The notes: a model not told the origin generated them from the sequence alone. Numbered from the stretch's first letter, positions 1,366 through 23,919 are shown. The stretch is 64,000 nt of DNA from an uncultured delta proteobacterium (GCA_963760985.1 CAVXFM010000010.1:388430-452429); one strand, 5' to 3'. Numbers and translations are program-made.

Positions 1366-2446
1366 TCACGTGATCATCGTCTGCTGTGGCATATGATTTC
1401 CCAGATTTCGGGAAAATCCGCGGCCGTGAGGGGATTGCGCGCGTATGCGCTCTGCGCGCAATCGCATGATATGAGCATCCCGGTCCTTTCCCACTGCAGT
1501 GCAAATTTCCGACAATTCCTCGAGCAATTCCGCGACTTTTCGATGATCCGCCCCCAGATTTGTTTCCAGAATGTCGAGCGCTCGTCTGAAGAACGACTCG
1601 GCTTCGGGCAAGCGTCTCTCACGCTTGCACAAGGCACCGGTGAGGCGGAGGTTGGTTGCCCAACTGAACCAATCCTGAAGCGGAGTCACCCTTTGGCTGA
1701 TTTCTCTGAAAGCAAAGAGCAGCGCTCCACCTTGCTTTGCGGTATTACCGGACGCGAGGATGGTCATTTCCACAGGAATTTCTCTGCCATTGCGCGAAAC
1801 CAAAATGCAATCGAATGATCGGGATACCTGCCCGGCAGCAGGATCGGTCAGGCAGAGATCGCGTATAAGTGCGCCGGTCGCGGTCTGTTTGAGGGGCAGG
1901 ATCTCTTGGGCAGTCCTGCCGACCGCATCGGTTTCCGAGAACTGCAAGAGCGTTTCTGCCAAAGGATTCATGTGCCTGACAATCCCTTTTCCGTCCGGTA
2001 CCGATCACTGCCCCACCGAGCCCGTTCACGGTCTGGGAAAACCACTCGGCGGTTTCTCGCATCTGTTGTTCTTTTCGATGTTTGTGAAGTGCCACCTCAA
2101 TGGTGGTCCGCAGTTCAGATTCAGCGAAGGGCTTTACCAGATAAGCAAACGGATCCCCCAGCTTGGCCTTCTGCAACGTCTGTTCGTCCGAATGCGCGGT
2201 GAGATACACCACGGGAATATCGTGGAACTCATGAATTTTCCGCGCAGCTTCTATTCCGTCGATCTTACCTGCCAGTTTGATGTCCATGAGAACCAGGTCA
2301 GGCAGGACCGTGGCCGCAATCTCTATCGCTTCCTCGCCACGTCCCAGCGTGCCCACCACCTCATAGCCGAAAGCTGTCAGCCTGGACTTGAGTTCCATGG
2401 CCACAATCACCTCATCTTCGACAATCAGTATCCTTGGAGCCGACAT
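1366..2446 (-). CDS. response regulator receiver fused to a PAS/TPR-like region; apparently frameshifted between 1972 and 2060
   Basis: ATG at 2446 opens a canonical receiver (MSAPRILIVEDE...LMDIKLAGKIDGIEAARKIHEF...YLVKPF), 14 nt downstream of the kinase stop. That frame runs on without homology to 1745. ORF 1366..1971 in another frame encodes a PAS core plus TPR-like helices. Receiver and PAS are probably one gene split by an indel. Confidence 0.5.
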
Positions 2447-2460
2447 GGAATCCTTCCTCC

Positions 2461-3468
2461 TCACACTTGCTCGCAACTCGGAAATGTGGCCCGAAACGTG
2501 ACTCCGTTTTTGTGAAGGACCTCGATGCTTCCCCTCAATTGCGTTTCCACGAGATTGACCACCAGTTGCAGTCCAAGGGAAGCCGTGTTGCGGTAGTCGA
2601 AACCGTCGGGCAAACCCTTTCCATTGTCTTGCACCGCGAACGTGTAAGACTGGGCATCCTTTCGCAAGAATTCGACGCGGATTTCGCCCGCGCATTGGGG
2701 TGGAAACGCATGCTTCAGGGAATTGCTGACCAACTCGTTGATAACGAGACTGCATGGAAGCGCCCGGGCTACGTCCAGAAAGACGTGACTGGCATGCACG
2801 CTGATCTGCACCGAACCAATCCGGTTGCCATGGGTTTGCGTCAGAGCCTTAGCCAACGATTTCAGATAGTCAGCGTAATCAATTCGAGAGAGATCGTCCG
2901 ACTGATAAAGCTGCTCGTGGATCAGCGCCATGGACCTGATCCTGTCCTGACTATCTCTGAGCGCGTCCACGATCTTGGGGTCGTCGACATGAGCGCTCTG
3001 TAACGAGAGCAGGCTACTTATTATCTGGAGGTTGTTCTTGACCCGGTGATGGATCTCGCTGAGAAGAATTTCCTTTTCCCTCAGCGACTCTCTGATTTGT
3101 TCCTCCGCGAGTGTCCGCTGAGCGATTTCCATTCTCAGCTTCTCATTGGAAATGGAAAGCTCTTCCGTGCGTTCTCGAACCCGTTTGTCCAATTCCTGGT
3201 GGGCAGTAAGGAGATCGAGTTCCGCTTGCCGCCGCGCGGCTATTTCTACGATGAGTTTCCTGTTGGACTCTTCAAGAACCTTTCTTCTCCGTTTCTCTTC
3301 CTCATACACTTTCACCAAGTCATCCGCATACTTGAGCGATTGCCTGAAGAAGAGGTCTCTTTCGTTGAGCGTATCGTGCGTCATGTTACACGTCCCAACC
3401 GTGGCGGTCTCCTCGGTAGAAATCTCTACAGACTGCATTGCACTTCCTTGTAGCCTCGATTCGGACAC
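2461..3468 (-). CDS. sensor histidine kinase, HisKA_2/HWE-type, with N-terminal QSLKYAED module
   Basis: 335 aa. H-box [20 protein letters not shown] is typical of the HisKA_2 family. A C-terminal HATPase-like region follows ([12 protein letters not shown]...DNGKGLP...SLGLQLV). N-terminus has a coiled coil and the shared motif [20 protein letters not shown]. Confidence 0.8.
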
Positions 3469-4095
3469 CGTGGGATCGGGCTTCTCCCAGGGGGGAAATT
3501 TAGCCCTTGGATTAGGGAATTTGCCACGTTTTCTGTCTTCGGTCTCTTCGCTTGCTCAACCAGTCGCTTTTCCTCACTCTGTTTCGTTAGTGGCAAGTTT
3601 CGTGCCAACCGTGGAGATCGGCCAGGAATAGAGGATTATCTTGTGATGTAGGGAGGATATCCGGTGGCGGGCCATAGAGCGAGGGGGCAGGGGAAAGAGA
3701 GAGGTGCACAAAAAAAACACATAAATGCACGGGAAAAAGAGTGAACAGCGATCATCTTGCCGAGAAACTCGACTGCTGGTCCCTGAATCGGATGTGTTTA
3801 TTTTCTGTGCACAGGCAGCCAAAGACGGATGGCTGCTTGGAAGCTGTCGAACTGGACGCCGCGTTCGGTGACGCGGACGGACTTGCGTCACCCGCAAGGA
3901 CGGGCCTCCCTGGACCTACAGGAACCGGGGATTATTTTCCGGTAACGGCCATAATCGGTCTTTTGATTCTGCGTTGGGCAAAGGCGAGTAACTTGAAGGA
4001 GGGTATCTCCTTGCAAGCGACCCGGGGCCGTCGAATCTGCGTTCAGGAGATCTCTCTCCGTTGGGCTGGGTTGCTCAATGATAAGCGAAAAGGTA

Positions 4096-7000
4096 TTAGC
4101 TCTTGTCCAGGGTTTCACGAACCATCTGGAGCACTTGCTTCATGTCATACGGTTTCTTTATAAATCCTCTCACTTTCATTTCCACGGTTTCTCCGGTAGC
4201 GCCTTCGCCGTAGTGACCGCTCGCAATGATCACTTTCACGAGAGGAGCGATCTTGAGAAGTTCTTCAAGGCACTGGTACCCTCCCATTTCGGGCATGATG
4301 AGATCCATGATGACGAGTGAAATCGTGTCCGCTTCTTTCTTGTACAGGCTCAGCGCCTCTTTCCCGTTGGCCGCGGTGATTACTTGGTATCCTGATCGTT
4401 CCAGCATCCTTGTGCCCAGGTCTCTAATGGAGATTTCATCATCCACCAGCAGAATCGTCTCCGAACCGCCCAATTGCTCGATCTCCATCGCGGGTTTCTG
4501 CGCGAGGGATTCAGCTGGGACTGCCGGAAAATAGATTTTGAACGTGGTCCCTTTGCCGGACGTACTGACACAGGTAATGTGGCCACCGTGTTGTTGGACG
4601 ATCCCATACACCATAGCCAGTCCCAGGCCCGTTCCCTTGCCCGTCTCCTTGGTAGTGTAAAACGGCTCGAAGATATGGTGCAAGGTGTCTTGGTCCATTC
4701 CTTGCCCGGTATCGGACACAGAAAGCATCACGGAATCACAGGCCCTCACGCCGAGGTGCAGACGGCAATACTCTTCATCCAGGGTGACGTTCTTTGTTTC
4801 AATGAGGAGCTTCCCTCCGTCAGGCATTGCATCTTTCGCGTTCACGGCCAGATTCATGAGAATCTGTTCCATCTGGATAGGGTCCGCGTTGATCGTGTGC
4901 AGATCTTTGGACAGGACGAGGTTGATCTTGATCATCTTGGGAATAGTTCGCGAAAGCAGGGTCCTTACTTGCTCGATTTGACTGTTGAGATCAAGGGGCC
5001 GAAGGTTGATCTCCGCCTTTCTACTGAACGCGAGTATGCGCCGAACCAAGTCAGCACCATTGATCGCTGCCTGATGGATCTTCTGAAGGTCCGCGTAAGA
5101 AGGGTCCTGTTCGTCCTTGTCAGCAAGCAGCAGTTCGGAAAACCCCTGCACGATGGTAAGTAAGTTGTTGAAGTCGTGAGCCATACCTCCAGCCAGGGTC
5201 CCGATGGCCTCCATCTTCTGCGCGTGGGCAAGTTGGGAGCGCAGGGACTTTTCATCGCTGATGTCTACCACGAAACTGAGAATCGCTGGGTCTCCCTGGA
5301 ACTGTGTCCTGGTCATCCAAATGGAGACATCAAATGGCTCGCGATTCTTCCTGAGTCCTGTGGCTTCCAGATGATAGGGGACCGGCACTCCCTCCAACAA
5401 GTCCGTCAGCAGAGTTTGCATGGTCCCCTGAGATTCCGGGGCATACAGGTCTCCAATTTGCGATCTTAAGATCTCTTGCTGGCTGTCATAGCCGAAGGTT
5501 CTTACGAATGCGGGGTTGACGTATTGCCGCCTTCCACGCTGGAAGATGGTGATGCCGATGGGCGAGGATTCAGTCAGGACACGAAATCTCTCTTCAGAAG
5601 CTTTCAATTCTTCTGCGGCCTTCTTGCGTTCGGTGATGTCCACGGCAAAGCCTCTGATCCCCACGATCTTTCCCTCATGCACGATAGGCGCTGAGTGCGT
5701 GACCACGTCAAAGGTCCTGCCGTTCCTCCCCAGAACCCTATACTCATGGCCGCCTGGCGTTTCCCCGGAAAGGGTCCTGCGCAAGTCTGTTGCCACTCGT
5801 TCGGTATCTTCGGCAATGAACACGTCGCGGACATGCAATCCCCTTTCCAGATCTTCCCGCGTGTACTCCGTCACCTGCAACGCTGACTCGTTGACGAAAG
5901 TGAAATAACCCTTCTCATTGATTTCATACACAAACTGCGGGAGCAGTTCGGCCAATTCCCTGAATTTCTCTTCACTCAAACGGAGTTTCTGTTCAATTCT
6001 CTTCAATGCCGAGGAATCGGCAGCGATCAGCAGAAGATGAGGTCGTCGTCCGAACCGGAATCTGCTCAAACGACAGACCAGCCACACTTCCTTGCCGTAA
6101 ATGGTGACGAAATGTACTTCGCGGCGTTTTCCGATACCGTGGGACAAGACCTCTTCCGCGTCATCGAACATGCCCAATTCTCGCCAAGACGTGAACTCGT
6201 GGAAATTTTTCTTGAGCAAGTCCTCTTGAGAACCTCCGAGGATGGAGCACATGGCGTCGTTGACGGTCACCGTTTGCCCGTCAGCTCTGTATGTGGCTAT
6301 TCCCACAGGGGAAGAACCCAAAATTTTCCTGTTGAATTCATGCGCTTCGGCGATCCGAGTCTCGGCCCGCTTCCTTTTGCTCACGTCCTCCATCATGGCA
6401 ACGAAATGGATGGGAATGCCCTCTTCATCACGAACCACAGCGACCGTGAGGCTGATCCAAACGCTCTTTCCTCCCTTTCTCAGGTAGCGTCTCTCAACTC
6501 TGTAATAAGGAATCTCTCCTCTTACCAGGCGCCTCGCGCATCTCGCACCCTTCCGGATGTCCTCCGGATGGGTGAGGTCAACGAACGAGAGTCTCGTAAG
6601 TTCATCCTCCGTATATCCCAGGATCTCGCAGAGCGTGGCGTTTACAGCGACCCATCGATAATCCAATCCCAGTATTGCTATGCCGAACGGCCCCTGTTGA
6701 AACACCTTGCGAAAGCGTTCCTCGCTCTGTCTCAACAGCAACCGCGCTCGTTCCTGTTCTCTGCCACGCCTCATGGCCGTGAGCCCGCAACTCAGCCCAC
6801 CTGCCAATTCGGTAACGAATTTGACTTCGTCCTCGTCAAAAGCATCCGGTTCGTTCGCGGGGATTGTCAGTGCCCCGATGACCCGGCCGTCCGCCACAAG
6901 GGGCAAGGAAATCGCGGAACTATGGCCAAGCGCGAGCAACTGCGGAGGCATAGGAGTAACCGAAGCATCGGTCGGGATACTTCTCGCAATCTGCGTCTGC

Positions 7001-8234
7001 CCGGTCCTGATCGTGGTACCAGTGAGATGCGCTGTGGCGTTATCCGCCCAGGAAACGTGGGCAGTGTCGAAGAAGCCTTCCTCGAAACCCTTGTGGGCAC
7101 CGATGCGAACCGTTTTTGCCTCGTCTTTGACCGCAAATTCGACCCAGGCTCGGGGATAGCCCGCGACTTCAACAATGATCCTGCATATTTCATTCAGAAG
7201 GGGGGCCTCTTCCGTGGTGAGCGCCAGTGCTTGGTTACACTCACTGAGCGCTCTCCATGCGCGGGACGCACGGAGCAAATGCTTTTCGGTCTGCTCGCGG
7301 CGGGCAATCTCAGCCCGAAGGCTCTCGTTCCTCGCGTTCAGTTCGTGAGTCCGTTGCAGAACCCTGCTCTCCAATTGATCTCGCGCATCTCTCAGGGCTT
7401 GTTCCGCGTCTTTGCGTTCCGTGACATCACGGCCCACGGCAAAAATCATCGGTTCTTCAGGAAGAGGAAAAGCATTCCACGAGATCCATCGATAGGTGCC
7501 GTCCTTGCATTGCCACCGATTCTCAAAAGCATATATCGTCTTGCCGGATATGAGGCGTTGCACTGCAGCAATCGTGCCCGGCCTGTCGTCCGAGTGAACT
7601 AACCGGATCCACGGTTTGCTCAGCAATTGATCTCGGGGCCATGAAAGAACCTTGGTGAACGCGGGATTCACTTCCTTGAGGAATCCGTCAAAACCTGAGA
7701 AACTCAGCATATCGACGGAGAGGTTGAACACCCGATTCCGTTCCTGTTCCACAATCTTTTGCGCAGTGACGTCCCGGCCGACACCCTGAATTTCCCACAG
7801 GTTACCCTGTTCGTCATAAATAGCGCGATCGGTCCATCGCTGCCACCGGATCTTCCCTTCCGGGTCGATTACCCTATGCTCATGTGAGAGGATGGGGCTC
7901 TCAGGACTGAGAGACGAAAAAAATGATAATTTACCGCGTCGCTGTCCTCTTCCGGAATCGTTTGAGAAAAGCGGGTACCCATGAGGTCCCGAAGTTCTTT
8001 GCCAAAATAGCGGCAATACGCTGCATTGGCAAACGTGATAGTTCCGTCGGGAAAGTAGCGACAGATGAGTTCGGTTTGTGATTCGACCACGTCACGGTAC
8101 CGCTGTGCAATCCTCCTCCAGGTGTCCTCAGTCTCCCCGGACCCGAGTTCCGGTCTTTCCCCCCCGTAGACACCGTTCTCGAATAACCCTACCGTGGTGA
8201 AGAGTTGCTCTCCTGTCTCGCCCTGATCGCCCAT
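4096..8234 (-). CDS. large multi-PAS/GAF hybrid sensor histidine kinase with C-terminal receiver; frameshift at the A7/T7 run 7915-7921
   Basis: ORF 4096..8016 (1306 aa) carries several PAS/GAF modules, HisKA (GGMAHDFNNLLTIVQG), HATPase (GTGLGLAMVYGIVQQHGG) and a receiver (ILLVDDEISIRD...IMDLIMPEMGG). The PAS N-terminus (TELICRYFPDGTITFANAAYCRYFG) lies in ORF 7869..8234 in another frame. The two join at ...AVNYHFF | SSLSPESPILSHEHRVIDPEGK across a homopolymer. Confidence 0.75.
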
Positions 8235-8516
8235 GGTTCCCCACCTGAAAAGCTTAGAGAGTGGCCAGTGATTGGATAGAACGACCCGCGTATCATTCCG
8301 TGGAAGACGAAGCGGATCTCCCTAGGTGATGCAGAAGCACATCGAGAAAGACAAACCAATCACCGTTTCAAAATCAATAGACCCAAAGGTTGTATTATTA
8401 CAAATTGTCGAAGAAGGGAATCCCCGGGACGACATGCCGGCCCACCCCATTGGACAGCGTGCGTCTGTCCAAGCGGCATTCCCCGAATCCGCCACCGAGT
8501 TAAGAAAAGCAGGCGC

Positions 8517-10031
8517 TCAGTCCTCAATGCCGAGCGTCTTCAAATAATGGTTAAGCGAATTTCGGGATATCCCCAGCAGTCGTGCTGCGCCCACACGGTT
8601 GCCTCCTGACCGTCGCAAGGCCTCCAATACCAGTGATCGCTTCAATTCCCTTGAGACATCATTCAGGGACCTGTCCTCGGGAAAATCAGTGGCAAACGTC
8701 CAGATTTTCTCGGTATGACCGAGACCAAGGCTAGACGAGGTAATAGCACCGCCGGCAGACAGGATCAGCGTCCGCTCCAGGCGATTGCGAAGCTCCCGGA
8801 CGTTGCCCGGCCAGTCATAGCCTTTGAGTGTGTCCATGACATCCGGGTCGAAGGTGGGCTGAGCGGGAAGACGTATATCACGCTGTAATTGGGAGACAAG
8901 GTGCCGGACAAGGATAGGTATGTCTTCTCTCCGTTCGCGGAGAGGAGGTATGCGGATGGAGATGACATTAAGGCGGTAGAACAGGTCGCGACGGAATCGT
9001 CCCGTGTCCACCTCATCTTCCAACTCTCGATTGGTGGCTGCGATCAACCTCGCGTTGACCGAGATGCTTTTCTCTCCGCCCACCCGGGTGAACGATTTGG
9101 TGTCGAGAAATGTAAGCAACTTGGCTTGCAAGGAAAGCGAAAGCTCGCCGACCTCGTTGAGGAACAGCGTGCCTCCTTCGGCCAGTTCCAGCAGACCGCG
9201 CTTGCGAGCCCGGGCTCCCGTAAATGCACCGGGTTCATGGCCGAACAGTTCGGACTCGGCAAGTTCGGGCGAAACGGACGCGCAGTTTATGGCGAAAAAA
9301 GGGCCATTGGCTCGCTCGGAACTGTCATGAATGAAACGGGCCATGAAGTCCTTACCGGTTCCGCTTTCGCCGAGAAGAAGAATCGTGGTTTGCTGGGACG
9401 CAACGAGTCGCGCCTTGTCCAAAGCAGCTCTCATTGCGTGGGACGCGGAATCGACCGTGGCGGACACGGGGGGTGCTGCAGCCCTTCTGCGATCGGTGAT
9501 GTTTCGCGCGATCCCGCACAAGCCAATGACTTTCCCCGAAGAGTCCCGCAAGGGGACCTTGGTTTCGAGAAACGTGGTGGGAACTCCATTGACCGGGACC
9601 GTGTGTTCCTGCTCTATTGATTCGCCTTTGAGGACACGCCCGTCGATGACTCTCAAGCGCTGAGACACCTGGGGGCCGTACAGGTCAGCGTCGGTCTTGC
9701 CGATTATTGCAGACTTATCCAGTCTGAAAAGATTCTCCATGGCAGGACACGCGTGGGTGTACTTCAGAGTCTTGTCTTTGATGTATATACAATCTTGCGC
9801 GGTCTCGAAAACCGCGCGGAAACGTTCTTCACTCAGCCGAAGCGCTTCTTCGGAACGTTCGCGCTCGCCAATCTCCTGGAGCAGTCTTTGGTTTGCTGCT
9901 TCAAGTTCTTGACGTTTGGTCTTTTCCTCTTCGTACACGGTGACAATATCTTCCGCGTATTTCAGAGACTGCCTGACCAACAGCTCCTTTTCGTCGTCTG
10001 GGTCCTTGCGGGTGTCCTTAGTTTTAGTCAC
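8517..10031 (-). CDS. sigma-54-dependent Fis-family transcriptional activator (QSLKYAED module - PAS - AAA+ - HTH)
   Basis: 504 aa. Walker [16 protein letters not shown], the GAFTGA-like loop ([10 protein letters not shown]), [12 protein letters not shown], and a C-terminal Fis-type HTH ([21 protein letters not shown]). PAS domain upstream. Confidence 0.9.
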
Positions 10032-10297
10032 GGGAACCTCCCCTGGAGGACAGGAGTGTACGTATCATTGTCACGCGAAACTTCGTCATGAATTCGGGTG
10101 TCCCTGCGATTCTCTTTGCAGTGTTCTCGGAAGGCACTGCAGGGCAAGTATGGCCTCGCACCACCATCTCAGACCAACTGACTGAGGCCTCGGAGTCTGG
10201 CAGAGTAAGCGGCTTTCTGTGGACCTGGGCCGAAAATCGTCGCAACCGGCACAACGTGCCACGGTTTCGGGAAGGCATTGCTTTACGCTACAGCCTC

Positions 10298-10663
10298 TTA
10301 GTCGAGGATCTTGTCGACCTTCTTCATAAGTTCCAGCGGGCTAAAGGGTTTTACGATGTAATCGTCCGCTCCTGCGTCTTTGCCTTTTTCTCTATCCACG
10401 ATCTGTCCCTTGGCGGTGAGAAGGATCACCTTGCACTCTTTCGTGCGAGGGTGCTTCTTCAACATCCTGGTGGCTTCCAGGCCATCAATCGTTCCAGGCA
10501 TCATCACGTCCATCATGATGAGATCGGGTTCTTCCGCGATGGCTAGCTCAACGCCTTTTTCGCCGTTTTCTGCTTTAAGCACATGACGATCGCCCCTGCG
10601 AAGTGTCTTTTCTACCAGGTCCCTGACTTCTTCCACATCATCTACGATGAGTATTTTCTTCAC
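10298..10663 (-). CDS. single-domain response regulator (CheY-like)
   Basis: GTG start 7 nt after an AAGGAGGAAGG Shine-Dalgarno. VKKILIVDDVEEVRD...IMMDVMMPGTIDGLEA...VILLTAKGQ...DYIVKPF. Lies immediately after the kinase stop at 10677. Confidence 0.8.
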   Translation of the reverse strand: MKKILIVDDVEEVRDLVEKTLRRGDRHVLKAENGEKGVELAIAEEPDLIMMDVMMPGTIDGLEATRMLKKHPRTKECKVILLTAKGQIVDREKGKDAGADDYIVKPFSPLELMKKVDKILD

Positions 10664-10676
10664 TCTGCCTTCCTCC

Positions 10677-12650
10677 TTAAATCGCATCCGCGAATCCAAC
10701 CGGCAAGGCGAATCGTACTGTCGTACCCTTGCCGTATGCGCTTTCCACCCATACTTGTCCGCCCTCGGCTTCAATGAGGCTCTTGACGAGACTCATTCCC
10801 AGCCCAAGCCCCGGTACGGCCGTATCGGAGGTGTTCGCGCGATAGAATCTGTTGAAAATTTTTGACACCTGGTCCGGGGTCATACCAATGCCCTCGTCCT
10901 GTACGGAAAACTGGCACCGGTCCCCGATCAGTTCGCAGGTCAAGCGAATCAAGCCGCCTTCAGGCGAATACCTCTCGCGTTGTTCAGAATGGTTGTCAGG
11001 ACGTCGGTGAGAAATCTCCGACCCATCATGAGGTGCACGGGTTGTTCGGGGAACACGGTTTCGAAGCGGTGGATCTTGGACTGCTTGCGAAACGAATCTA
11101 TGATTTCTTCGATGGATTCTCTCACCTGCCACGGCTCGGGATCCACGGGGATGAACCTTCCCGTGTCGCTTTTCCAGACGCTCAGGAGCCTCGAAACCAG
11201 GGATGCGAGATTCCTGGCCTGAGCGTGAATGCGGGTGAGGCAGTCCTTTGTTTCTTCCTGCGAGAGATCGTCGCGAATCAAGAGCAGCTCAGAATAGCCA
11301 ATGATCGATGTGAGTGGGGTTTGCAGTTCATGGGCTGCGGTCGTCACAAATTCGGTCTTCATCTCTTCGATTTGCTTGCGGTCTGAGATTTCGCGTGATA
11401 CGCCCAAGATACCTGCCCGCGCCCCACTAGGGCCTTGCAAGACCGTGGCCGTGATTTCCATCCACACGGTTGACCCGTCTTTGCGACGATGCTCCACTTC
11501 GATGGTTCTTGATAACCCCTCTCGATCAGGTGGAGGTCCTTCGCTGGTGAGTTTCTTCGGCATACACTTGCATGAGCAGCTCCCGCGATGCCGGGGTGAA
11601 CATTTCCAACGGATCCAAAAGCACTATTTCTTCAGGCGTGTATCCGAGGACTTGGTTCACCGAGGGGCTCACATACGTGTAACGACCTTTCATGTCTACG
11701 GTCCAGATGATCTCTCTCGCGTTCTCCACGAGGGTACGATATCGCAGTTCGCTTTGCTGCAGCGCTTCTTCGACCCGCTCGCGTTCAGCTATCTGCATCC
11801 GCAGCCGGTCGTTGATCCTCACAAGCTCTGCAGTTCGTTGTTCTGCACGTCGCTCCAGTTCTTGATTGGCCCTTGACAGAGCAGCCTGTGAGGCCATTCT
11901 CTCGAGCGCTACTCCAATGCTGAAACTAATCCCCTCGAAAAAACGGATGGTCTTGGAGGTGAAACAGCCTTCACTCTTGTCATTGAGCTGTACCAGGCCA
12001 ATGATTTCTCCTTCGGACCGCAGGGGAATGAGCGCTACGGACTCGTACCCCTCTTCAGCGCACACGTTTCCTTCACAGGACTGGCGGGCACCTACCGAAG
12101 CCTTTCCTGGAAGTCGTGACAAGCAGTTAGTCCAGAACGTTCCCGCTTCGGAAAAATGAGACCGGGACCCATCTAAACGACTCTGTAAGACCTTGCCGCA
12201 GTAGCATTTCAGCAGAAATTTGCCTGATGAGTCGCATGCAGCGGCACTTGAAATGTCCTTAGGGCACAGGAAATTCTCCGCGTCGACAAAGTGATCCGGA
12301 AAACCACTCGTGACGCAATAGGGAAAGTCCGCGTCGTCACGCAGGCGCACTCCCACTGCATCGAGTTGCGTGAAATGTCTGATCTTGTGCACGATATCGC
12401 GAAGAACTTGTTGCCGATCGCGAACGGACCGATTGAGAAGCTCAAGAATTTCGAGAGCCAGGGCGTTTTTCTCCTGTACCCTCTTGAGCTTCATACAAGA
12501 CGCTGTATTTTTATTCTCCTGCCGCATCGAGTCGTCCACGGATTCTTTGTCTCTCGGTTGTGCTTCATCCTGTCCTACCGAGGGCACACCGGAGCGCCAT
12601 GTCACAAGGCACTTTTCCTGCCAACGACCATGACCTGACAGTGCCACCAA
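10677..12650 (-). CDS. GAF-PAS sensor histidine kinase, fragmented by two apparent frameshifts (about 11545 and about 10960)
   Basis: Three consecutive overlapping ORFs in different frames carry successive parts of one kinase. ORF 11526..12650 has GAF plus the start of PAS. ORF 10949..11563 has the end of PAS plus HisKA (TTAAHELQTPLTSIIGYSELL). ORF 10677..11132 has HATPase (RYSPEGGLIRLT...DEGIGM...GLGLGMSLVKSLIEAEGGQVWVES). The N-box is split: LTTILNNA in one frame, RYSPEGG in the next. Confidence 0.7.
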
Positions 12651-13550
12651 AGAACGAAAGTCGCTCTGGGTGGTTGGTTTCCTATGGGATTTCTTCGCTC
12701 ACGCACCAAAAATCATCATGCACTAAGCAGTAAACCGAGTCAACGAGAATGGGGTGGAACGAGGCTACTCCAAGGAGGCGTGGCAAAATCAGCGAGTAGA
12801 TTTTGCGCCCGAAGAAAACCAGGTTTTTCTCTTGACAGCAGAATCCGCCTTGTGAAACATGAGCCGACGACACGAGGACATACTGGGGGGGGGAACTGCA
12901 TGTCTTAGGTGACAGCGCCCGGGAGCGTGTTGCGTAACGCCGATCATGGTGACCACCGTGGTACTCGGTGTATCGCGCGACGCGGTGTCGGACCAACTGC
13001 CCGGCTCCTGGGAGTCTGACACACCAAGCTTTTTCTTGGCAACATGCGCCTGAAGACATCGGAACCGATGCCGCGGTGCCGCGTTTCCGGGGAAAGCCTT
13101 GCGTGCGGCAACCGCGTCCTTGTCATCGACCCAGAGCTCGATCAAGTTTGTGGGTCGGCGGCGTTCCCCAAGAAATCCTTTCTCTGCTTCACTCAGCAAA
13201 AGCTTTTATCAAGGAAGTTGCATCCTTTTCGGTGACTTCCGGGGGGGAGATGCGCCCACATGTCGAGGCCGTTCTGTGGGATTGTCCGGGGGGGCAGAAC
13301 AAAAAACCATCACGTGGTTCTCTCCTTTCCTCGAAATCGAACAAAAAACACACATGGAATTGGGCGGAGCCTTGCGACGACCGCTCGTCACTCGCGGAAC
13401 GGCAGATTCCTGCCTCTCTAGCCGGACATGCGTGGTTTTTGGTCACCCTGAGCACGTTGGCCGGGCCTTTCGTACCGTCGTCACACGCGGCATAGGCGCA
13501 ACGTATGGTAATGACTGGGTGTTGCCATTTATATGCCCCCCTAAGAAAGA

Positions 13551-13566
13551 TGGCACGATAATTGCG
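13551..13566 (+). promoter_or_regulatory. sigma-54 (-24/-12) promoter candidate TGGCACGATAATTGCG
   Basis: Exact GG-N10-GC spacing with flanking TGGCAC and TTGC, about 65 nt upstream of the ATG at 13633. A sigma-54 activator is encoded 3.5 kb away. Confidence 0.5.
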
Positions 13567-13632
13567 TGTTGTGAGGCGAGGGCCGCGGAGGCCCGATTCA
13601 GGATTTGAGGCACAACTGCCAGGGAGGGCGAG

Positions 13633-14785
13633 ATGAAAACGAATCGCATATACTTAGTACTGACTTTGATGGGGGTGATGATGGTGATCGCTTGGTCAAC
13701 TCCCTCGGCCGCGGAATCCCCCCGACTCTTCAGTATGTGGCAGCCTCATAAGAGCACTCCCGGAGAATTGCTGAGAAGCGCGGCATACGAGGGCAATCTT
13801 TCTGAAATAACACGTCTCCTGGCCCAGGGTGCCGATGTCGATGCACGTGACAAGGAGGGCTGGACACCGCTGATTTGGGCCCAGGTTGGCAATCGCTCCG
13901 AGGCAGTTAAGTTGCTCGCGCAGAGAGGGGCTATGATTGACGCGGAGGATAACTCAGGCTTCACCGCGTTACACCAGGCTGCCACGGCTGGCCGAGAGAC
14001 AGTGATGGCAGGTACTCCTCGCTCGTGGTGCGGATGTCGAAAGCGTGAGTCGCTATGGGTGCACGCCACTCATGGACGCCTCGGCTTACGGAAAATCGAT
14101 GGCAGTGGAACTCCTCCTGGCCGGTGGAGCCGACCCGAATGCGATAAGCACCAAGGGCGATACTGCGGTGTCTCTCGCGGAAAAGCGCGGCCACAAGAAT
14201 GTGGCAATGTTGCTGGTGGCGAACGGTGCGGATCCCAACCTTCAGGGCAAGAGACTGCAAGCAGCGCTGGCCAAGAGCGGTTCTCGGTCTGCAGGGCCTA
14301 CGCGTGTCCGACTCGCGGGGCAAATGAGAAATCCCGAGGTGTTGGAGTCCCTGTGCCACGAGTGCCTGTCTCAGGAGGCTGACGCCAATCTCAGGCTAAT
14401 CTCCGGGCAGCGGCCGGACTCTCACAGTAGATTAGCAGCGTGGTGTCAGAAAAGAGGCATTAAGAATGGCAGCGAAACACGGGCATTCGAACAGGCTTCG
14501 GGCAATGCACGGCTCTCGGAAGCCGTGCCGGGAACTGTGAGCGGAAAAAATGGCAGCGCCTCGTACCTGATTCGGGAAGCCATCGCGACATGGGAGCAGC
14601 TCCAAGCGAAATATCCCCATGCTGACAAACGCTTGCGAGACCTTTCCCGCAAAGGCATTTCCCCTGATACCTTGGCACGTAAGGAGCCCCTGGTGCAAAA
14701 GGCCATGCAAATATGGATGAGCTTGCAGAGTGAGCACCCTGATCTGGCAGCGCAGTTGCTGAGTATTGCCGGAATGAGCCGATGA
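13633..14785 (+). CDS. secreted ankyrin-repeat protein (signal peptide; apparent frameshift near 14003)
   Basis: N-terminal hydrophobic signal sequence (IYLVLTLMGVMMVIAWSTPSAAE). Ankyrin repeats follow (GADVDARDKEGWTPLIWA, DNSGFTALHQAA). Repeats continue in a second frame from 14004 (VLLARGADVESVSRYGCTPLMDASAYG...LLLAGGADPNA) as ORF 14045..14785. Confidence 0.7.
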
Positions 14786-14862
14786 TTGCGGATCCGACGA
14801 GGCACGACGCATCCACTCATGCGGGGTACAGAGGGCAACCCCAGCCCCTGGAGGTAACAGCC

Positions 14863-15081
14863 ATGGCTCAAGACAGCAGAATGCCCACGAACGACATTGA
14901 CGAGCGCACGCTCTTCATACACCAGTCACTCAAGTATGCGGAAGACTTTGTGACGCTCTACGAGGAAAGCGAAGCAATGCGCAAGGAATTGCAGAGAGTT
15001 AAGGTGATGCTAGCTGCAGAGATAGCTGCTCGGCGTAAAGCAGAAACAGAATTGAGGGGAAAGACCTCTTGCGCGTGCTGA
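14863..15081 (+). CDS. small protein consisting only of the QSLKYAED N-terminal module plus a coiled coil
   Basis: 72 aa from an ATG with GAGG 8 nt upstream. [30 protein letters not shown]...EIAARRKAETEL closely matches the N-termini of the kinase at 3468 and the sigma-54 activator at 10031. No downstream domain in any frame. Confidence 0.4.
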   Translation: MAQDSRMPTNDIDERTLFIHQSLKYAEDFVTLYEESEAMRKELQRVKVMLAAEIAARRKAETELRGKTSCAC

Positions 15082-15432
15082 TCCGCAATCGGTCGGCAGG
15101 CTGGCTTCTTCGATCAGAGGGATCAACGACTCAGGCGCAAACACGCCTCACAATCAAAGCGCAATCCTTTTCACGTCCTCTTCGCACACAAATTTCGGGG
15201 ATCGCGAAACGCGGCGGCCACAAGCTGGCTTGCCGCACGAGATCCATTTCATGCGGGATCGGGTCCCCTGGGGGCCTTCGCGGCGTGATGGTTATTCCTG
15301 CTTTACGATTCCCGGGGGTTTTTCACCAAGTGTCCGGGGCATGTGTATCCGGCTCACATTCTTTCCCAAGGAAAGCAGGCCGATGAGGAACGTGTCGTTC
15401 CCAGTCCGATCACGCTCAAGGACAAGCGCCCG

Positions 15433-16482
15433 TCATCCCACGGCCCGTTCCTTCACATCTTCGCGGATTCTGCCGAGCACGGGGACCAAATCCATAAAAC
15501 ATTCGAAAATGCGGGACCCGAAATAGTCTCCTCCTGCTGCCATCATGATAGAAAGGGCCTGTGTCTCGGGGATCGCTCGACGGTACACTCTATGGTGAAC
15601 CATTGCATCATAGACGTCCACTACGGCCACGATAGCTGCAGAAGCAGGTATTTCTTCACCAGTCAGTCCTCGAGGGTATCCGGACCCGTCCCACCGCTCG
15701 TGGTGAAACAAAGCGATCTCTCTTGCCATTTGAATCAGCGGCACCTGTGATCCGTCAAGGATGTCGGCTCCAATTGCCGCGTGAGTCTTCATGATCTCGA
15801 ATTCGTCTACGGTCAGTTTGCCGGGCTTGCGGAGGATCGAATCGGGAATCCCGATTTTCCCGACATCATGCATGGGAGCTGCCAGACGAATTTGTTCAAC
15901 GGCTTCACGGCTCCATGCAAGGGCTCGGGCCATCTCTGCGGAGTAGAGCCCGATTCGCCGCACATGGGCTCCAGTCTCGTCATCACGGGATCCGGTTGCA
16001 GAAAGCAGCCGGAGGATGATTTCCTCTTCTCTTTGCCTTACTTCCTTGGTTCTTTGGAGGACCTGGGCCTCGAGTTCCCGCTCGTAATCGCGACTCAGAA
16101 GCAGCAAGCGACGTCGCTCCAGCGCGTTGACGACGGATATGATGATTTCATTGCGTTCAAAAGGCTTGGTGACATATCCGTATGCCCCGAGTTCAAGTGC
16201 GATGATGGCCGTTTTTCTGTCATCCACGGCTGTCACCATTATGACGGCAATGTCCGGGAACAAAGGCTTCATGACCATCAAAAGATCCATTCCGGACATG
16301 CGAGGCATCATGATGTCGCTCACGAGCAGATCGAACTTTTCTCCGTTCAAGAGTTCGAGTGCGGTTTCGCCGTCTGCCGCGGTGGAGCATGCATAACCTT
16401 CCGCACTAAGCCATCGTTTGAGCAGATCGCAGATGTAAGGCTCATCGTCCACTATGAGGATTCTTGCTGGTCGCTCTTGCAT
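15433..16482 (-). CDS. response regulator with HD-GYP c-di-GMP phosphodiesterase domain (RpfG-like)
   Basis: Receiver ILIVDDEPYICD...VSDIMMPRMSGMDL...YVTKPF followed by HD-GYP signatures (HDVGKIGIP, HHERWDGSGYP). Confidence 0.9.
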   Translation of the reverse strand: MQERPARILIVDDEPYICDLLKRWLSAEGYACSTAADGETALELLNGEKFDLLVSDIMMPRMSGMDLLMVMKPLFPDIAVIMVTAVDDRKTAIIALELGAYGYVTKPFERNEIIISVVNALERRRLLLLSRDYERELEAQVLQRTKEVRQREEEIILRLLSATGSRDDETGAHVRRIGLYSAEMARALAWSREAVEQIRLAAPMHDVGKIGIPDSILRKPGKLTVDEFEIMKTHAAIGADILDGSQVPLIQMAREIALFHHERWDGSGYPRGLTGEEIPASAAIVAVVDVYDAMVHHRVYRRAIPETQALSIMMAAGGDYFGSRIFECFMDLVPVLGRIREDVKERAVG

Positions 16483-17021
16483 AAGCCGTCGTACCTCCGC
16501 GCACAGACTCCGGTGACGTCGTTACCACGTGGGGAAAAAATAACTCAAGTTTGGTGTGGTGCCAATGGTTCATCGGCTTCGTGGTCTTGACCTCGTGTCG
16601 AGCTGCGCCCATACTTTACCGATTTGAGGGCTCCAAACCCTGTATTCGGTAACGCGAAAAAATGCGTTCGCGCACAGGATCATAGCCGTGGCGAAAATTC
16701 TTGACCTCATTGGCTCGACCTTCGCAGGAACGAACCGATGAGGAACACGGGGGGGCAGAAAATCCCTCCTATTTCGCGCGACACCATGCCGTCGAATCTT
16801 CGTGCAGACTCCCCCTGCACCATCTCCTGAAAGCTCGAGTCATCCGGTCAGAATTCTTGGCAACTGCCGTAAGTCAAGCTGAGAAAGGCTCTACAGACAG
16901 GTCCGCGTCAACGGCGTGTACCATCCCCCGTTCGAACAATCACAAGCTTTTCTAAGGAATTGTCGTGTGAGATACGGTCGTGATCGTGGAAGCACAGGTC
17001 ATGCCACCGAGGCCCGCAAGG

Positions 17022-17396
17022 TCACTTTTCCCCGAGAGCCTCGCTCACTACGTCCAACAACTCTTGCCTGGTGAATGGTTTGGCGAGCGCTTTCACCGCG
17101 CCCAGGCTCTTGGCTAAATGCAGGCAGGTGGCTCCGGTTGTCGCTTGTCCCCCACCGGAAATCGCCACTATCTTCACTGCGGGGAACTCTCGCCTGAGTT
17201 CCATTATGGTTTCGATGCCCTCTTTTTCCGGCATGATGATGTCAGTAATAATGAGGTCTGGACGATTTTCACGGTACAACTTCATACCGACGTTGCCGTC
17301 GGGGGCCTCGATCACTTGGTAACCGGCCTGAGTCAGAATACGTCCGCAAAGGGTCCGAATGGCAGCTTCGTCATCTATGACCAGAATCGAACTCAT
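17022..17396 (-). CDS. single-domain response regulator (CheY-like)
   Basis: MSSILVIDDEAAIRT...IITDIIMPEKEGIETI...KIVAISGGG...AKPF. The longer ORF 17022..17654 has a non-homologous 5-prime extension. Confidence 0.8.
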   Translation of the reverse strand: MSSILVIDDEAAIRTLCGRILTQAGYQVIEAPDGNVGMKLYRENRPDLIITDIIMPEKEGIETIMELRREFPAVKIVAISGGGQATTGATCLHLAKSLGAVKALAKPFTRQELLDVVSEALGEK

Positions 17397-17527
17397 ATCC
17401 GGCCGATCCTTTCGCCAACGCGTTTCTTGCGTTGTGGACTTTGCGACTGGGGCTTGTACCCCGCTTCCGCAACGCGAAAGAGTCACTCTCCGGGTGAGGC
17501 CCAGTAACACCACGACAGTCGGTGCGC

Positions 17528-18064
17528 TCAGCCGCGGAGCGTGAGTGCTTGAATCAATTTCCGGAGTTCCTGCAAGGACCCTTCGGAGAAATCGACAATT
17601 TCGAAGCCGGCCGAAGTCTCTTGCCGGTCGGTCTGCCGTCGCACCCACCTGCACTGGGCTTCCAGAACAAACGGATGGATGTCTGCAAAGTCGTCCGCCT
17701 GCAGGACCAGCGTCTTGCAGTCACCAACTATTACCGAAAGTCCAGCGACCTGTAAACCCTTTTCCGTGATGTCCCTCACTTGTCCCTCGACCGTGAGGTT
17801 CTCCGCGCCGTACACAGGCAGTCTCACAAACACGTAATTCCGCGTGATTTCTCTTTGCGTGTCCAGCCCTACGCCATCGTCAGCAACCTGCACCCGGTAA
17901 TCGAGTTCACTTTCTCTGACGGCTTTCGCCTCGACGAGCTTCACGAAGATACTCTCCAGGCCCTGTGAGGAAAGGCGGTACTTCTCTCTGAGTTGCAAAT
18001 TTGTGAGACCGGCTCTTATGTCGCTGACCACGTCCTTTGCCCTGACTCTCCGTTTCTCGGTCAT
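17528..18064 (-). CDS. PilZ-like c-di-GMP receptor candidate with N-terminal LxEKYxLS motif
   Basis: ATG 18064 is preceded by a GGGGAGGGAG Shine-Dalgarno. REITR ... 21 aa ... DITEKG fits the PilZ RxxxR / (D/N)x(S/T)xxG spacing. A second RWVRR...DFSEGS half is present. N-terminal DIRAGLTNLQLREKYRLSSQGLESIFVKL motif. Confidence 0.5.
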   Translation of the reverse strand: MTEKRRVRAKDVVSDIRAGLTNLQLREKYRLSSQGLESIFVKLVEAKAVRESELDYRVQVADDGVGLDTQREITRNYVFVRLPVYGAENLTVEGQVRDITEKGLQVAGLSVIVGDCKTLVLQADDFADIHPFVLEAQCRWVRRQTDRQETSAGFEIVDFSEGSLQELRKLIQALTLRG

Positions 18065-19033
18065 AGGGTACGCGCTCCCTCCCCTCTTGCTCATTGAACC
18101 CACTTTTCGGGAATAGCTCCGCTTGCTTCATGGTTCCCCATATGACGCGGGTCTGACTCCGACGCTTGCCACACCTGGACCAGGTTGCGGCCTAGTTGTT
18201 TTGCCCGATAAAGCGCCTGATCGACTCCGCGAACCACTGCATCCATATCCAACTTTGCTTTCCCCTGGACGGACGCGATTCCCAAACTCATGGTGACCGA
18301 AAAAACCCCTTCCGGAGTCACGAGCGGCCTCTCGGACAAGGATTGGCGCAGTCGCTCTGCCATGTCCTGTGCACAGTGCTGATCGCACCCGGGCGACACC
18401 AAGAGAAACTCTTCTCCCCCATAACGCCCTACGACATCGTAGGACCGTACATGGGAAACCATCCGTGCGGCCACTTCTCGCAGTACGGCATCCCCTGCCA
18501 GGTGCCCGTACGTGTCGTTGATTCGCTTGAAGTGATCCAAGTCTGCGATAATGATCCCCACGGACGTGTTTTCCCTCAGGGAACGCTCCAATTCTCTGCG
18601 CAGCACGTCCATGACAGCCCTCCTATTCCAGAGACCCGTGAGGGGATCGTGTGAGGCTTGATACTCCGAGGCTGACAAAGCAGAGACAAGGTCCTGTTGG
18701 AGCTGAACTATGCGGGAACCTGCTCTTACACGCACATCAAGCTCATGGGCATCGAAAGGTTTGACGATGTAATCGTCCGCTCCTGCTTCCAGGCCCTCTA
18801 TCACATCTTCTTTCCTCGACTTCGCGGTTAGGAGGATGACGTACGTGTACGGCTGTTTTCCCATTTTCCGAATCTCGCGGCATAACGCCACGCCATCCAT
18901 GCCGGGCATCATCCAATCGAGAACCACCAGATGAGGCGCATCTTCTCGGTTCAGTATTTCCCACGCCTGGGAGCCGTCTGCGCAGGACACTATCTCGTAC
19001 CCCCATTGGGTGAGGCGTGCTTCGAGCAGCCTT

Positions 19034-22471
<3,438 letters not shown>

Positions 22472-23400: not shown

Positions 23401-23919
23401 GCTGTTCCCTCCGTGTGCCTCCGGTCTATCTATTAGCAATTTTCGTGCCGGATGCAGTTCTGGCTATGTCGATGCCTAAAACCAGCTCCAGTAGGCCAGT
23501 GCGCTCTCTGCCTCGTGCGCGGGACTTCCTCCCGTGCCTGTTCTCGAGGTAGTTCAATGTACAAAAAACCAACAGAGATTGTTGAGGCACGGAATATCGT
23601 GTCGTTACGGCTCGGCAGTGTGTGTTTTCCACGCAGTTTGGGAAAGCGGAGCACCAAACGTGTGTGTCCTTTTCTTCCGGAAACCTGACCCGCTCATCGG
23701 GGGTGAGCGAGATTGTGCAAAAAAAGGCTGGTGAAGGCGACCGAAGGGATCTCCGTATTGCCGAGTTCTGGGAGAAGTCGCGCGAAGCGATTCCGCGGCG
23801 GAGAGATTTGTGAGAATTTGCTTTGGCAGGCTCCTACGGAATTGACGGGTGGGGGGGGTGTGATAGCGTCCAAGGTAGTCCATTTGTTATCCAAGAACAG
23901 AAAAGGCCACCGGGGGGCA

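Follow-up and report, generated by a model that had tools for sequence, protein, structure and literature searches.

An undescribed N-terminal helix on a histidine kinase, a sigma-54 activator and a 72-residue protein as a probable docking site of a single-domain receiver

The window analysed here is the whole stretch of 64,000 nucleotides (64 kb) from an uncultured delta proteobacterium (GCA_963760985.1 CAVXFM010000010.1:388430-452429), and all positions are counted from its first letter. Three of its genes share an N-terminal segment, referred to as the module, and lie among the following genes:

1745-2455, minus strand: response regulator with a receiver domain (REC) followed by an uncharacterised C-terminal region; the next gene downstream of the module-kinase
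2461-3468, minus strand: ORF of a HisKA_2/HATPase_c histidine kinase with the module (module-kinase); module at about 3250-3366, likely start at the ATG at 3438
8517-10031, minus strand: ORF of a module-PAS-sigma-54 activator (AAA+, GAFTGA, HTH_8) without a receiver domain (module-activator); module at about 9879-9995
10298-10663, minus strand: single-domain receiver RECm of 121 aa (Pfam Response_reg 9.8e-28; DD/D/T/K residues), the proposed partner of the module
10677-12650, minus strand: sensor kinase (GAF-PAS-HisKA-HATPase) encoded upstream of RECm; the assembly splits it into three frames
13633-14785, plus strand: ankyrin-repeat protein gene directly upstream of the small ORF, with a frame break near 14010 in the assembly
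14863-15081, plus strand: small module-only gene, 72 aa plus stop (ATG at 14863, stop at 15081); module proper at about 14899-15018

An earlier note on this DNA had reported the same N-terminal segment in the kinase, the activator and the small ORF, and the peptides quoted there were found at their places in the sequence. A six-frame regex scan and a profile HMM built from 28 diverse modules yielded exactly three copies in the 64-kb window, with HMM scores of 65.3, 64.7 and 60.0 bits and no other match. The three copies have 18 invariant residues in an alignment of 47, and the modules of kinase and activator show 47-49% identity to the small ORF. At the DNA level the mean column identity amounts to only 61%, and many of the differences within the module, as judged by eye, sit at the third codon base. 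Both observations indicate that the similarity was kept at the protein level and does not result from a recent DNA duplication.

The naming of the two larger proteins agrees with the Pfam domain calls. HisKA_2 (6.4e-31) and HATPase_c (4.2e-10) characterise the first as a histidine kinase of the HisKA_2/HWE type, while PAS_4, Sigma54_activat (7.4e-66), AAA_lid_14 and HTH_8, with no Response_reg, were obtained for the second. The translation of the activator contains GESGTGKD, GAFTGA and a C-terminal HTH, as is typical of bacterial enhancer-binding proteins, and its orthologue in locus L001 is 90.7% identical. The sequence of RECm shows the DD, MMDVMMPG, LLTAKG and VKPF elements of a CheY-like single-domain response regulator, and a PDB search with it returned only ordinary OmpR/PleD-type receivers. 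The L001 orthologue of the GAF-PAS kinase is intact with 616 aa. The response regulator at 1745-2455 is probably the phosphotransfer substrate of the module-kinase; a REC match just downstream of the module-kinase was also found in four other loci (L003, L005, L006, L012), and in L031 a REC-PAS-TPR gene follows it.

The module comprises about 40 residues, for which the window copies show the signature QSLKYAxDxVxxYEE...R..L. It consists of a head (L..xQxLKYAxDLxxxYxxE), which is conserved on several faces, followed by a heptad neck (ExxxRxxLExANxxL). Among the 28 diverse members Q9 and Y13 are invariant, and A14, D16, Y21, E24, R28, L31 and L38 are conserved to at least 90%. From residue 9 to residue 21 nearly all positions save 12, 15 and 19 are conserved, which exceeds the need of a two-stranded coiled-coil core. 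While a heptad stripe L17-E24-L31-L38 with a core Asn is present, the invariant Q and Y are placed off the best-scoring heptad core or at its edge. The possibility that the motif is simply a generic coiled-coil heptad, named in the earlier note as a refutation, was not borne out, since Q and Y are invariant off the core and only 44 matches occur among 1.84 billion proteins. The S-helix, reportedly described by Anantharaman, Balaji and Aravind in 2006 as a coiled coil of about 40 residues in many architectures near PAS, DHp and GGDEF, resembles the module in length and in its occurrence across many signalling architectures. However, the S-helix lies between two domains and has a central ERT-type signature, whereas the module is N-terminal with the signature QxLKYAxDL...Y..E...R..LE.AN and no ERT motif in its consensus, and it does not classify as an S-helix. 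The window kinase has a separate ERT-containing helix (VRERTEEL) C-terminal to the module.

The 44 matches were obtained in an exhaustive profile search of 1.84 billion representative proteins at E<=1e-3. Five of them (P0005, P0009, P0011, P0025, P0026) are repeat proteins and were rejected as false positives; the short matches P0028, P0033, P0034, P0035, P0038, P0046, P0047 and P0007 appear to be fragments of genes, or parts of HD-GYP proteins or kinases split off by frameshifts, and do not count as stand-alone proteins. Word-indexed homologue searches were nearly empty (two matches with the 72-aa protein, three with the 28-sequence profile), and a metagenome scan with a closer alignment mostly recovered the same orthologous operons. 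In scans of the full window proteins the N-terminal module was covered by no Pfam-A or NCBIfam family. When the 28 module segments were scanned alone, only scattered coiled-coil matches at noise level appeared (best E-value 1e-3), none of the families being shared by more than four of the 28, and a PDB profile search with the module found generic coiled coils only, at best a kinesin neck with an E-value of 0.009. A literature search on the motif string returned nothing on the module, nor did the literature on receiver-less activators or on HD-GYP proteins with detached receivers. The module is an undescribed N-terminal helix, probably an adaptor.

The earlier note had asked whether it recurs as a domain. 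The profile search found it to be specific, recurrent and common to at least five output classes; it is predicted to be helical, and it is located at the extreme N-terminus in nearly all members. The bearers comprise PAS-containing activators and one activator lacking PAS, HisKA_2 kinases, HisKA kinases, GGDEF proteins and HD-GYP proteins. In some kinases the module runs directly into a PAS domain, and HD-GYP proteins sometimes contain tandem copies. P0017 represents a module of the small-ORF type fused to ankyrin repeats. Stand-alone versions, the recurrence of which had been raised as a question, were found in P0002, P0003, P0004 and P0010.

That the small ORF contains the module and nothing else is in line with its AlphaFold2 model, one continuous helix from residue 10 to 71 with a mean pLDDT of 87. 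A GGAGG precedes the ATG by 8 nt, and ribosome binding site and start are conserved in L001 and L015, where the orthologues comprise 71 aa; a homologue of 70 aa is present in L014. Altogether, at least three other assemblies have kept the length, start, ribosome binding site and stop of the gene, and a stand-alone homologue of about 50% identity is complete on its own contig. The dN/dS (omega) of the small gene was determined to be 0.125-0.14 at a dS of 0.6-0.9, compared to 0.07-0.09 for neighbouring genes. These data argue for a real gene. The approximately 340 nt 3' of the small ORF showed no significant RNA fold (z = -0.48), no copy elsewhere and no Rfam match.

Sigma-54-like sites are more frequent in the window than expected (7 observed, 1.96 expected). 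The sites relevant for the module genes are:

3592-3607, minus strand: sigma-54 promoter-like site TGGCACGAAACTTGCC, upstream of the module-kinase
3704-3810: two convergent A-rich sites resembling upstream activator sites (3704-3721 and 3793-3810), which precede the promoter at 3607 by 100-200 nt
13297-13444: three A-rich upstream activator-like sites (13297, 13339, 13427) in the arrangement plus, plus, minus, as in L001, L012 and L021
13551-13566, plus strand: sigma-54 promoter-like site TGGCACGATAATTGCG, located 67 nt 5' of the ankyrin gene, with the small ORF following that gene
14745-14760, plus strand: weaker and doubtful sigma-54-like site TGGCAGCGCAGTTGCT, which falls within the 3' end of the ankyrin gene, some 100 nt before the small ORF

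Equivalent sites precede the module-kinases in L003, L005, L006 and L020. The site at 13551 is conserved in L001 and also occurs 5' of the ankyrin gene in L010, L023 and L024; the stretch 14745-14760 is conserved in L001 and L015, yet it is coding sequence. With a PWM for the A-rich sites, built from loci excluding the window and L001, sites were found 100-260 nt upstream of the promoters at 3607 (minus), 13551 (plus) and 23450 (minus), with no others in the window. The same layout of promoter plus sites occurs elsewhere before module-kinases, the ankyrin gene and the module-ankyrin fusion P0017. Orthologues of the ankyrin gene are present in L001 and L010, and between it and the small ORF no terminator-like site was found. 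Accordingly, it is predicted that the small ORF belongs to a sigma-54/UAS-controlled operon with the ankyrin gene, a feature that is absent from the earlier note.

RECm belongs to a family of at least 1039 relatives, the best 120 of which all stand alone and have a RECm-like length. In all loci recovered through the module-activator, a receiver with 58-92% identity to RECm lies directly upstream of it, while the other receivers in those same loci are only 28-41% identical. Since most of these loci are orthologous operons of related Thermodesulfobacteriota MAGs, they are not independent, and the independent RECm-module cases amount to about five. Among the more distant ones, L033 encodes a module-PAS-HisKA kinase with a 50%-identical RECm 21 nt upstream. 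Three look-ups starting from RECm members in other taxa led to module proteins in the same operon each time: a histidine kinase, RECm and a module-activator without PAS in Nitrospinota, RECm followed by a module-HD-GYP protein in Desulfobacterales, and, in the third locus, a module-kinase two genes and a module-HD-GYP protein four genes downstream. As the Nitrospinota activator has no sensory domain besides the module, the module is the only visible input site in this HK-REC-activator operon. P0019 is a single protein composed of a RECm (62% identical), a linker of 25 aa and a module-HisKA_2 kinase. This fusion originates from a single metagenome contig and has an internal Met where a separate start would be, so that an artefact of sequencing or of the stop codon may have produced it. 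AlphaFold2 on P0019 from a single sequence (mean pLDDT 53) was confident for the long helix alone and gave nothing on docking.

Two counter-examples were observed: the distant module-activator P0015 (L032) has no receiver within 1.2 kb upstream, and in L038 the module is missing from the gene that directly follows RECm. In the window, neither the module-kinase nor the small ORF adjoins RECm. The earlier note had proposed a common docking or dimerisation module; its docking half is backed by the gene neighbourhood, which moreover names a single-domain receiver that had not been mentioned, while the physical interaction is what we infer from it. The module is probably a docking site of RECm and the small protein probably its decoy; a competitor or titrator role of the free copy had been suggested in the earlier note. 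New in this analysis is the apparent coupling of module genes to one single-domain receiver subfamily.

The best explanation for these observations, which we put forward tentatively and at not quite an even chance, is that the module couples receiver-less outputs to RECm in a circuit with a module-only competitor. RECm would be phosphorylated by the GAF-PAS kinase and would then dock on the module of the PAS/sigma-54 activator, switching it on. The activator would drive the sigma-54 promoters with the shared A-rich upstream motif, i.e. those of the module-kinase (2461-3468) and of the ankyrin/small-ORF operon (13633-15081); it is adjacency that suggests the module-activator as the user of this motif. 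The induced module-kinase may serve as a second, branched output of RECm, whereas the induced 72-aa protein, having the same head without an output domain, may compete for RECm and thereby cause feedback damping or set a threshold. The ankyrin protein, which is predicted to be co-transcribed with the small ORF, looks exported; this is left unexplained by the decoy model.

Such a circuit can be compared with known systems. CheY binds the conserved N-terminal FliM peptide (FliM_N), and CheY-like Cle proteins also target the flagellar switch (10.1101/781468; PMC5677366). In both cases a single-domain receiver acts by protein contact, here presumed, and recognises its target by a short conserved stretch at the very N-terminus. 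FliM_N is an LSQxEIDALL-type peptide, to which the module consensus xExxLxxxQxLKYAxDL has no sequence similarity; unlike FliM_N, the module forms a helix about 40 residues long that continues into a coiled coil, and it is grafted on enzymes and a transcription activator instead of a motor protein, its binding being putative. SiaC, controlled by phosphorylation, binds conserved motifs on the N-terminal coiled-coil stalk of the diguanylate cyclase SiaD and promotes the active dimer (PMC8457831). The proposed small trans-acting partner and the conserved motif on the N-terminal helical stalk of an output enzyme are similar, and GGDEF proteins are among the module bearers. However, SiaC is not a receiver domain, SiaD has one output in contrast to several output classes of the module, and its stalk is unrelated to the module by sequence, with no such match in the PDB profile search. 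A receiver-less AAA+ sigma-54 activator under a separately encoded protein, as proposed here, resembles NifL-NifA and PspA-PspF, in which such activators are controlled in trans; NifL and PspA differ in having neither receiver domains nor a transferable N-terminal helix common to other enzymes.

The foremost alternative, which we nonetheless regard as rather unlikely, is that the module is a mere N-terminal dimerisation or capping coiled coil for PAS, DHp, GGDEF and HD-GYP domains, that RECm acts in the same pathway as phosphate sink or phosphotransfer partner without docking, and that the small protein is a dominant-negative microprotein forming mixed coiled coils with the N-termini of kinase and activator. 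The prediction as one long helix, the heptad stripe with its core Asn, the tandem copies in HD-GYP proteins, the generic PDB matches and the direct transition into PAS in some kinases, like a PAS N-cap helix, would all be in line with it. It fails to account for the invariance of the polar Q and D, for the fact that residues 9-21 are conserved on several faces, and for the sharing of just this helix by five unrelated output classes near the same receiver subfamily. Furthermore, the core Asn is present in 22 of 24 enzyme modules and in none of the four stand-alone members. The head of the small protein resembles the enzyme modules to the same degree as they resemble one another (0.46 each), but its neck has diverged (0.30 compared to 0.46 among enzyme modules). 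The lost Asn and the diverged neck argue against in-register pairing with the enzyme helices. This combination fits 'same partner, different oligomerisation' and is compatible with a small protein titrating a shared partner; due to the diverged coiled-coil core of the free copy, titration of a common partner appears more likely than heterodimerisation. MicroProteins, such as the plant LITTLE ZIPPER and the animal Id proteins, are dominant-negative single-domain paralogues, a eukaryotic concept. As in these, the small ORF encodes a small single-module protein homologous to the interaction module of larger proteins, and it could titrate its relatives or their partner.

It is improbable that the small protein is an adaptor or partner of the ankyrin-repeat protein instead of a competitor, the module then being a ligand of ankyrin repeats. 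In the window and L001 the two genes lie side by side behind a common sigma-54 promoter, and they are neighbours in a JGI contig as well; P0017 joins a module of the small-ORF type to ankyrin repeats and is preceded by the same arrangement of promoter and upstream sites; in L031 the gene directly 5' of RECm-module-kinase encodes an Hpt-REC-GGDEF-Ank protein, and in L010 an ankyrin gene follows the module-activator. Against this, the ankyrin protein has a signal-peptide-like N-terminus in the window, L001 and L010 and the small protein has none, which points to different compartments; moreover, the ankyrin repeats of P0017 show no more than a generic similarity (32%), and ankyrin neighbours are absent for most module proteins. 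That the module serves proteins of a c-di-GMP network as a common binding site for c-di-GMP or a similar small ligand is highly improbable: GGDEF, HD-GYP and PilZ genes are abundant in the cluster and R, D, E and Y residues are conserved in the module, but it shows, on visual comparison only, no likeness to the c-di-GMP-binding motifs RxxxR/DxSxxG, RsiG-type ExxxSxxRxxxQxxxD and MshEN, and the receiver linkage would be left unexplained. The reading of the 72-aa ORF as a relic without function, left by a duplication of the kinase 5' end, as the earlier note had allowed, was suggested by its module being closest to that of the kinase (54% identity over 50 residues) and by several assembly frame breaks nearby, and is contradicted by the conservation in other assemblies, the complete homologue and the purifying selection on stand-alone versions described above.

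Returning to RECm docking, single-domain response regulators represent a large share of bacterial receivers, and their targets are mostly unknown, as they act via protein contacts that leave no obvious sequence signature. On the modest reading, the module is a new conserved N-terminal signalling helix, unannotated in current domain databases. If it is the docking site of a widespread receiver subfamily, it would provide a sequence tag predicting targets of single-domain regulators. It is conceivable, with more doubt than confidence on our side, that the RECm family recognises its targets via a transferable 40-residue N-terminal helix grafted onto outputs of at least five classes, namely sigma-54 activators, two kinase classes, diguanylate cyclases and HD-GYP phosphodiesterases, and that module-only proteins, induced by the pathway's own sigma-54 activator, are built-in decoys. 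If true, one phosphorylated receiver would fan out to transcription, a second phosphorelay and c-di-GMP turnover, and a natural module-only competitor under feedback control would be a bacterial counterpart of the eukaryotic microProteins.

Three proteins encoded in the window share an N-terminal module, and the three peptides quoted for it in the earlier note were all found exactly as quoted, in the following translated frames:

2461-3468, minus strand: HisKA_2/HATPase_c kinase with the module
8517-10031, minus strand: PAS/sigma-54 activator with the module
14863 (ATG) to 15081 (stop), plus strand: small ORF of 72 aa, with GGAGG 8 nt 5' of the ATG

No further copy in the 64-kb window was detected by a six-frame regex scan or by a profile HMM based on 28 diverse sequences of the module, which scored the same three copies at 65.3, 64.7 and 60.0 bits. 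While 18 of 47 aligned residues are invariant among the three modules, the mean column identity of their DNA is only 61%, and many of the DNA differences within the module lie, as judged by eye, at the third base of the triplet. Both observations indicate that the similarity is kept at the protein level. Neither Pfam nor NCBIfam has a model for this segment, and the matches among PDB sequences were generic coiled coils and nothing further.

A profile search of the kind suggested in the earlier note showed that the module recurs across proteins and is specific, since an exhaustive search of 1.84 billion representative proteins returned only 44 matches (E<=1e-3), of which five were rejected as repeat-protein false positives. 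In the true matches, and likewise in loci from genome and metagenome scans, the module stands right at the N-terminal end of PAS-sigma-54 activators, HisKA_2 kinases, HisKA kinases (some with PAS, others lacking it), one hybrid kinase, GGDEF proteins, HD-GYP proteins (a full copy followed by a partial second copy) and one PP2C-like protein. In the family members P0029 and P0043 it is internal and separates the kinase core from an HD-GYP domain. The Desulfobacterales contig L038 is a second case in which different outputs at the same locus have the module in common; there, the first 30 residues of a short HisKA kinase (8421-9272) and of an HD-GYP protein (9745-10590) are nearly identical, with the shared N-terminus MDRDN[VI]S[GS]GSLDIDQLKKYAQD[LF].

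The consensus of the module is xExxLxxxQxLKYAxDLxxxYxxEKxxRxxLExANxxL. Across the 28 diverse sequences Q9 and Y13 are invariant, and conservation reaches 90% or more at A14, D16, Y21, E24, R28, L31 and L38. A heptad stripe (L17-E24-L31-L38) emerges from the column statistics, and Asn35 occupies the neighbouring core position. Residues 9-21 are conserved at nearly all positions except 12, 15 and 19, including the polar Q9 and D16, which exceeds the needs of a two-stranded coiled-coil core and speaks against the possibility, raised earlier, of a generic heptad without specific conservation. We infer from these patterns a multi-face 'head' followed by a heptad 'neck'. For the 72-aa protein, AlphaFold2 predicted a single helix (residues 10-71) with a pLDDT above 95 over residues 20-60. 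An assignment as S-helix was ruled out by the missing ERT motif and the N-terminal position.

The small ORF lies directly downstream of an ankyrin-repeat gene (Ank, 13633-14785, plus strand). On the syntenic contig L001, which shows the order HK - REC - activator ... Ank - small ORF - REC/HD-GYP, a protein of 71 aa (P0002) is 83% identical to it. A 71-aa form (P0003) comes from two additional metagenomes, with the same gene order around it, a form of 70 aa with about 50% identity (P0004) is complete on its own contig, and P0010 represents a fourth stand-alone form of the module. The orthologues agree in their start codon, RBS and stop position. The pairwise dN/dS of the small ORF amounts to 0.125-0.14 at a dS of 0.6-0.9, compared to 0.092 (activator), 0.073 (receiver) and 0.091 (REC-HD-GYP) between window and L001. 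The gap that separates the small ORF from the REC-HD-GYP gene, which is convergent to it, contains about 270-340 nt extra in the window (15090-15430); L001 and a further locus (L015) lack this stretch and have about 70-80 nt there. The extra sequence is not repeated elsewhere, and neither a significant RNA fold nor an Rfam match was found for it.

The contigs are of MAG quality, and frame breaks occur in neighbouring long genes of both the window and the L001 assemblies; despite these nearby breaks, the short length of the small ORF is reproduced in independent assemblies. In the window, the GAF-PAS kinase (10677-12650, minus strand; intact in L001) is divided into three pieces by frame shifts, the ankyrin gene is split in two at about 14010 (plus strand) compared to L001, the hybrid kinase shows a frame shift near 7900 (minus strand) compared to its intact L001 orthologue, and the receiver domain at 19460-19820 (minus strand) is divided between two frames near 19630. 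Conversely, L001 shows breaks where the window is intact. The frame shifts in both look like assembly indel errors, not pseudogenes. L001 and a JGI contig share the gene order of a c-di-GMP block (15433-19086, minus strand):

15433-16482, minus strand: REC-HD-GYP
17022-17654, minus strand: stand-alone REC
17528-18103, minus strand: PilZ-like protein, with a weak PilZ domain at its end
18091-19086, minus strand: REC-GGDEF

The related locus L010 carries a module-GGDEF gene at roughly the position of the small ORF. The proteins of 17528-18103 and 22696-23439 (both minus strand), the latter behind a predicted sigma-54/UAS promoter, have in common a repeated N-terminal motif I..I.AG....L..KY.LS...L..V, recognized by eye.

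A candidate partner of the module is encoded upstream of the activator:

10298-10663, minus strand: RECm, a stand-alone receiver of 121 aa with all phospho-acceptor residues present

Every locus recovered via the module-activator contained a RECm orthologue directly upstream with 58-92% identity (tblastn), these loci being largely orthologous operons from few independent lineages; other receivers in them were 28-41% identical to RECm. The module starts 33-160 nt past the receiver's last codon in most of the loci, whereas L001 and the window have a distance of about 190-300 nt. In several loci a module-kinase or module-GGDEF comes next. A 50%-identical RECm also lies 21 nt upstream of a distant module-PAS-HisKA kinase (P0037, contig L033), and in a single 406-aa protein (P0019, L031) a 62%-identical RECm is joined by a 25-aa linker to a module-HisKA_2 kinase, although this fusion, known from one contig and with an internal Met at the would-be separate start, may be an artefact. 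The distant activator P0015, with no receiver in the 1.2 kb upstream, is a counter-example. The RECm subfamily comprises at least 1039 relatives, the best 120 of which are all stand-alone. In the reciprocal direction, the neighbourhoods of three RECm members found in other taxa were inspected. A Nitrospinota MAG showed the order HK - RECm - 399-aa activator, with the module (PDEKALSGKQALKYAEDLAVLYRSEKEKRRQLEIANEKL) as the activator's only N-terminal feature, and a Desulfobacterales contig the order RECm - module-HD-GYP. At the third locus, the contig L038 described above, the next gene is without module, but two genes downstream lies the module-kinase and four genes downstream the module-HD-GYP, whose N-termini are almost the same. 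Since the module is the sole feature common to the five output classes neighbouring RECm, it is proposed from gene order and sequence as the docking or coupling site of RECm.

Sites resembling TGGCAC-N5-TTGCW occur seven times in the window compared to 1.96 expected, and none of 100 shuffles reached seven. The predicted sigma-54 sites include the following:

3607-3592, minus strand: upstream of the module-kinase
13551-13566, plus strand: 67 nt upstream of Ank, which precedes the small ORF
23435-23450, minus strand: upstream of the 247-aa ORF 22696-23439

No terminator-like site was found between Ank and the small ORF. Equivalent sites in other loci precede module-kinases, Ank genes, second module proteins, P0004 and a module-ankyrin fusion (P0017). 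The regions upstream of these predicted sigma-54 promoters share an A-rich motif, approximately GMMCAAAAAAYAANCAYR, in convergent pairs or triplets. A PWM derived solely from other loci, with the window and L001 left out, matched six distinct A-rich sites in the window (3704, 3793, 13297, 13339, 13427 and 23559), all of which precede a sigma-54-like site (3607-, 13551+ or 23450-) by 100-260 nt. The arrangement of promoter and A-rich sites is identical in L001, L012, L021 and L016, and P0017 is preceded by the same layout. Judged by adjacency, the module-activator would be the user of the A-rich sites, and module-kinase, Ank/small-ORF operon and the 247-aa ORF form a predicted small regulon.

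Altogether, the reading we tentatively prefer is that RECm docks on the module and the small protein is an inducible decoy. The sensor kinase would phosphorylate RECm, which would then dock on the module of the activator; the docked activator would switch on, via sigma-54, the genes of the module-kinase, Ank and the small protein. The module-kinase, together with a regulator of its own (1745-2455), would form a second branch under the control of RECm. Alternatively, the module could be a pure dimerisation helix and the small protein a heterodimer poison, which is unlikely but deserves consideration. The head (columns 2-24) of stand-alone modules is as similar to enzyme-borne modules (identity 0.46) as these are among each other, whereas the neck (columns 25-40) shows 0.30 compared to 0.46 among enzyme modules, and the core Asn35, present in 22 of 24 enzyme modules, is replaced in all four stand-alone forms (K, K, R, S). 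This pattern fits a free copy that has kept a partner-binding surface and lost in-register pairing with enzyme helices. Because the head is kept, the neck diverged and Asn35 lost, titration of a shared partner is favoured over heterodimer poisoning, with proof of neither.

Rather improbable is that the small protein serves the ankyrin protein. The fusion P0017 and the recurrence of ankyrin genes near module loci would agree with such a role, but the ankyrin similarity of P0017 is only generic and the Ank N-terminus is hydrophobic and signal-peptide-like (window 13633-13720, L001 8763-8850, L010 7581-7670). L001 Ank contains a possible lipobox VLAC, with W in place of C in the window. The co-transcription of a predicted exported ankyrin protein with a cytoplasmic helix is a pairing that the decoy model does not explain. 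A ligand-binding helix is very improbable, and the small ORF as a remnant, an objection foreseen in the earlier note, is least probable of all and ruled out by its dN/dS and by the conserved start, RBS and length (orthologues of 70-71 aa) in other assemblies.

Docking of a receiver on its target via a short N-terminal segment is of a known kind. Closest in logic to the RECm-module proposal is CheY, which binds a conserved N-terminal peptide of FliM (10.1101/781468), along with the CheY-like Cle proteins, whose target is likewise the flagellar switch (PMC5677366); also near in logic is SiaC, whose binding sites on the cyclase SiaD are conserved motifs of its N-terminal stalk (PMC8457831). In concept, the small protein resembles eukaryotic microProteins. 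New here, as far as the sequences indicate, is an undescribed, transferable module as the proposed carrier of such docking, together with natural copies that consist of the module only.
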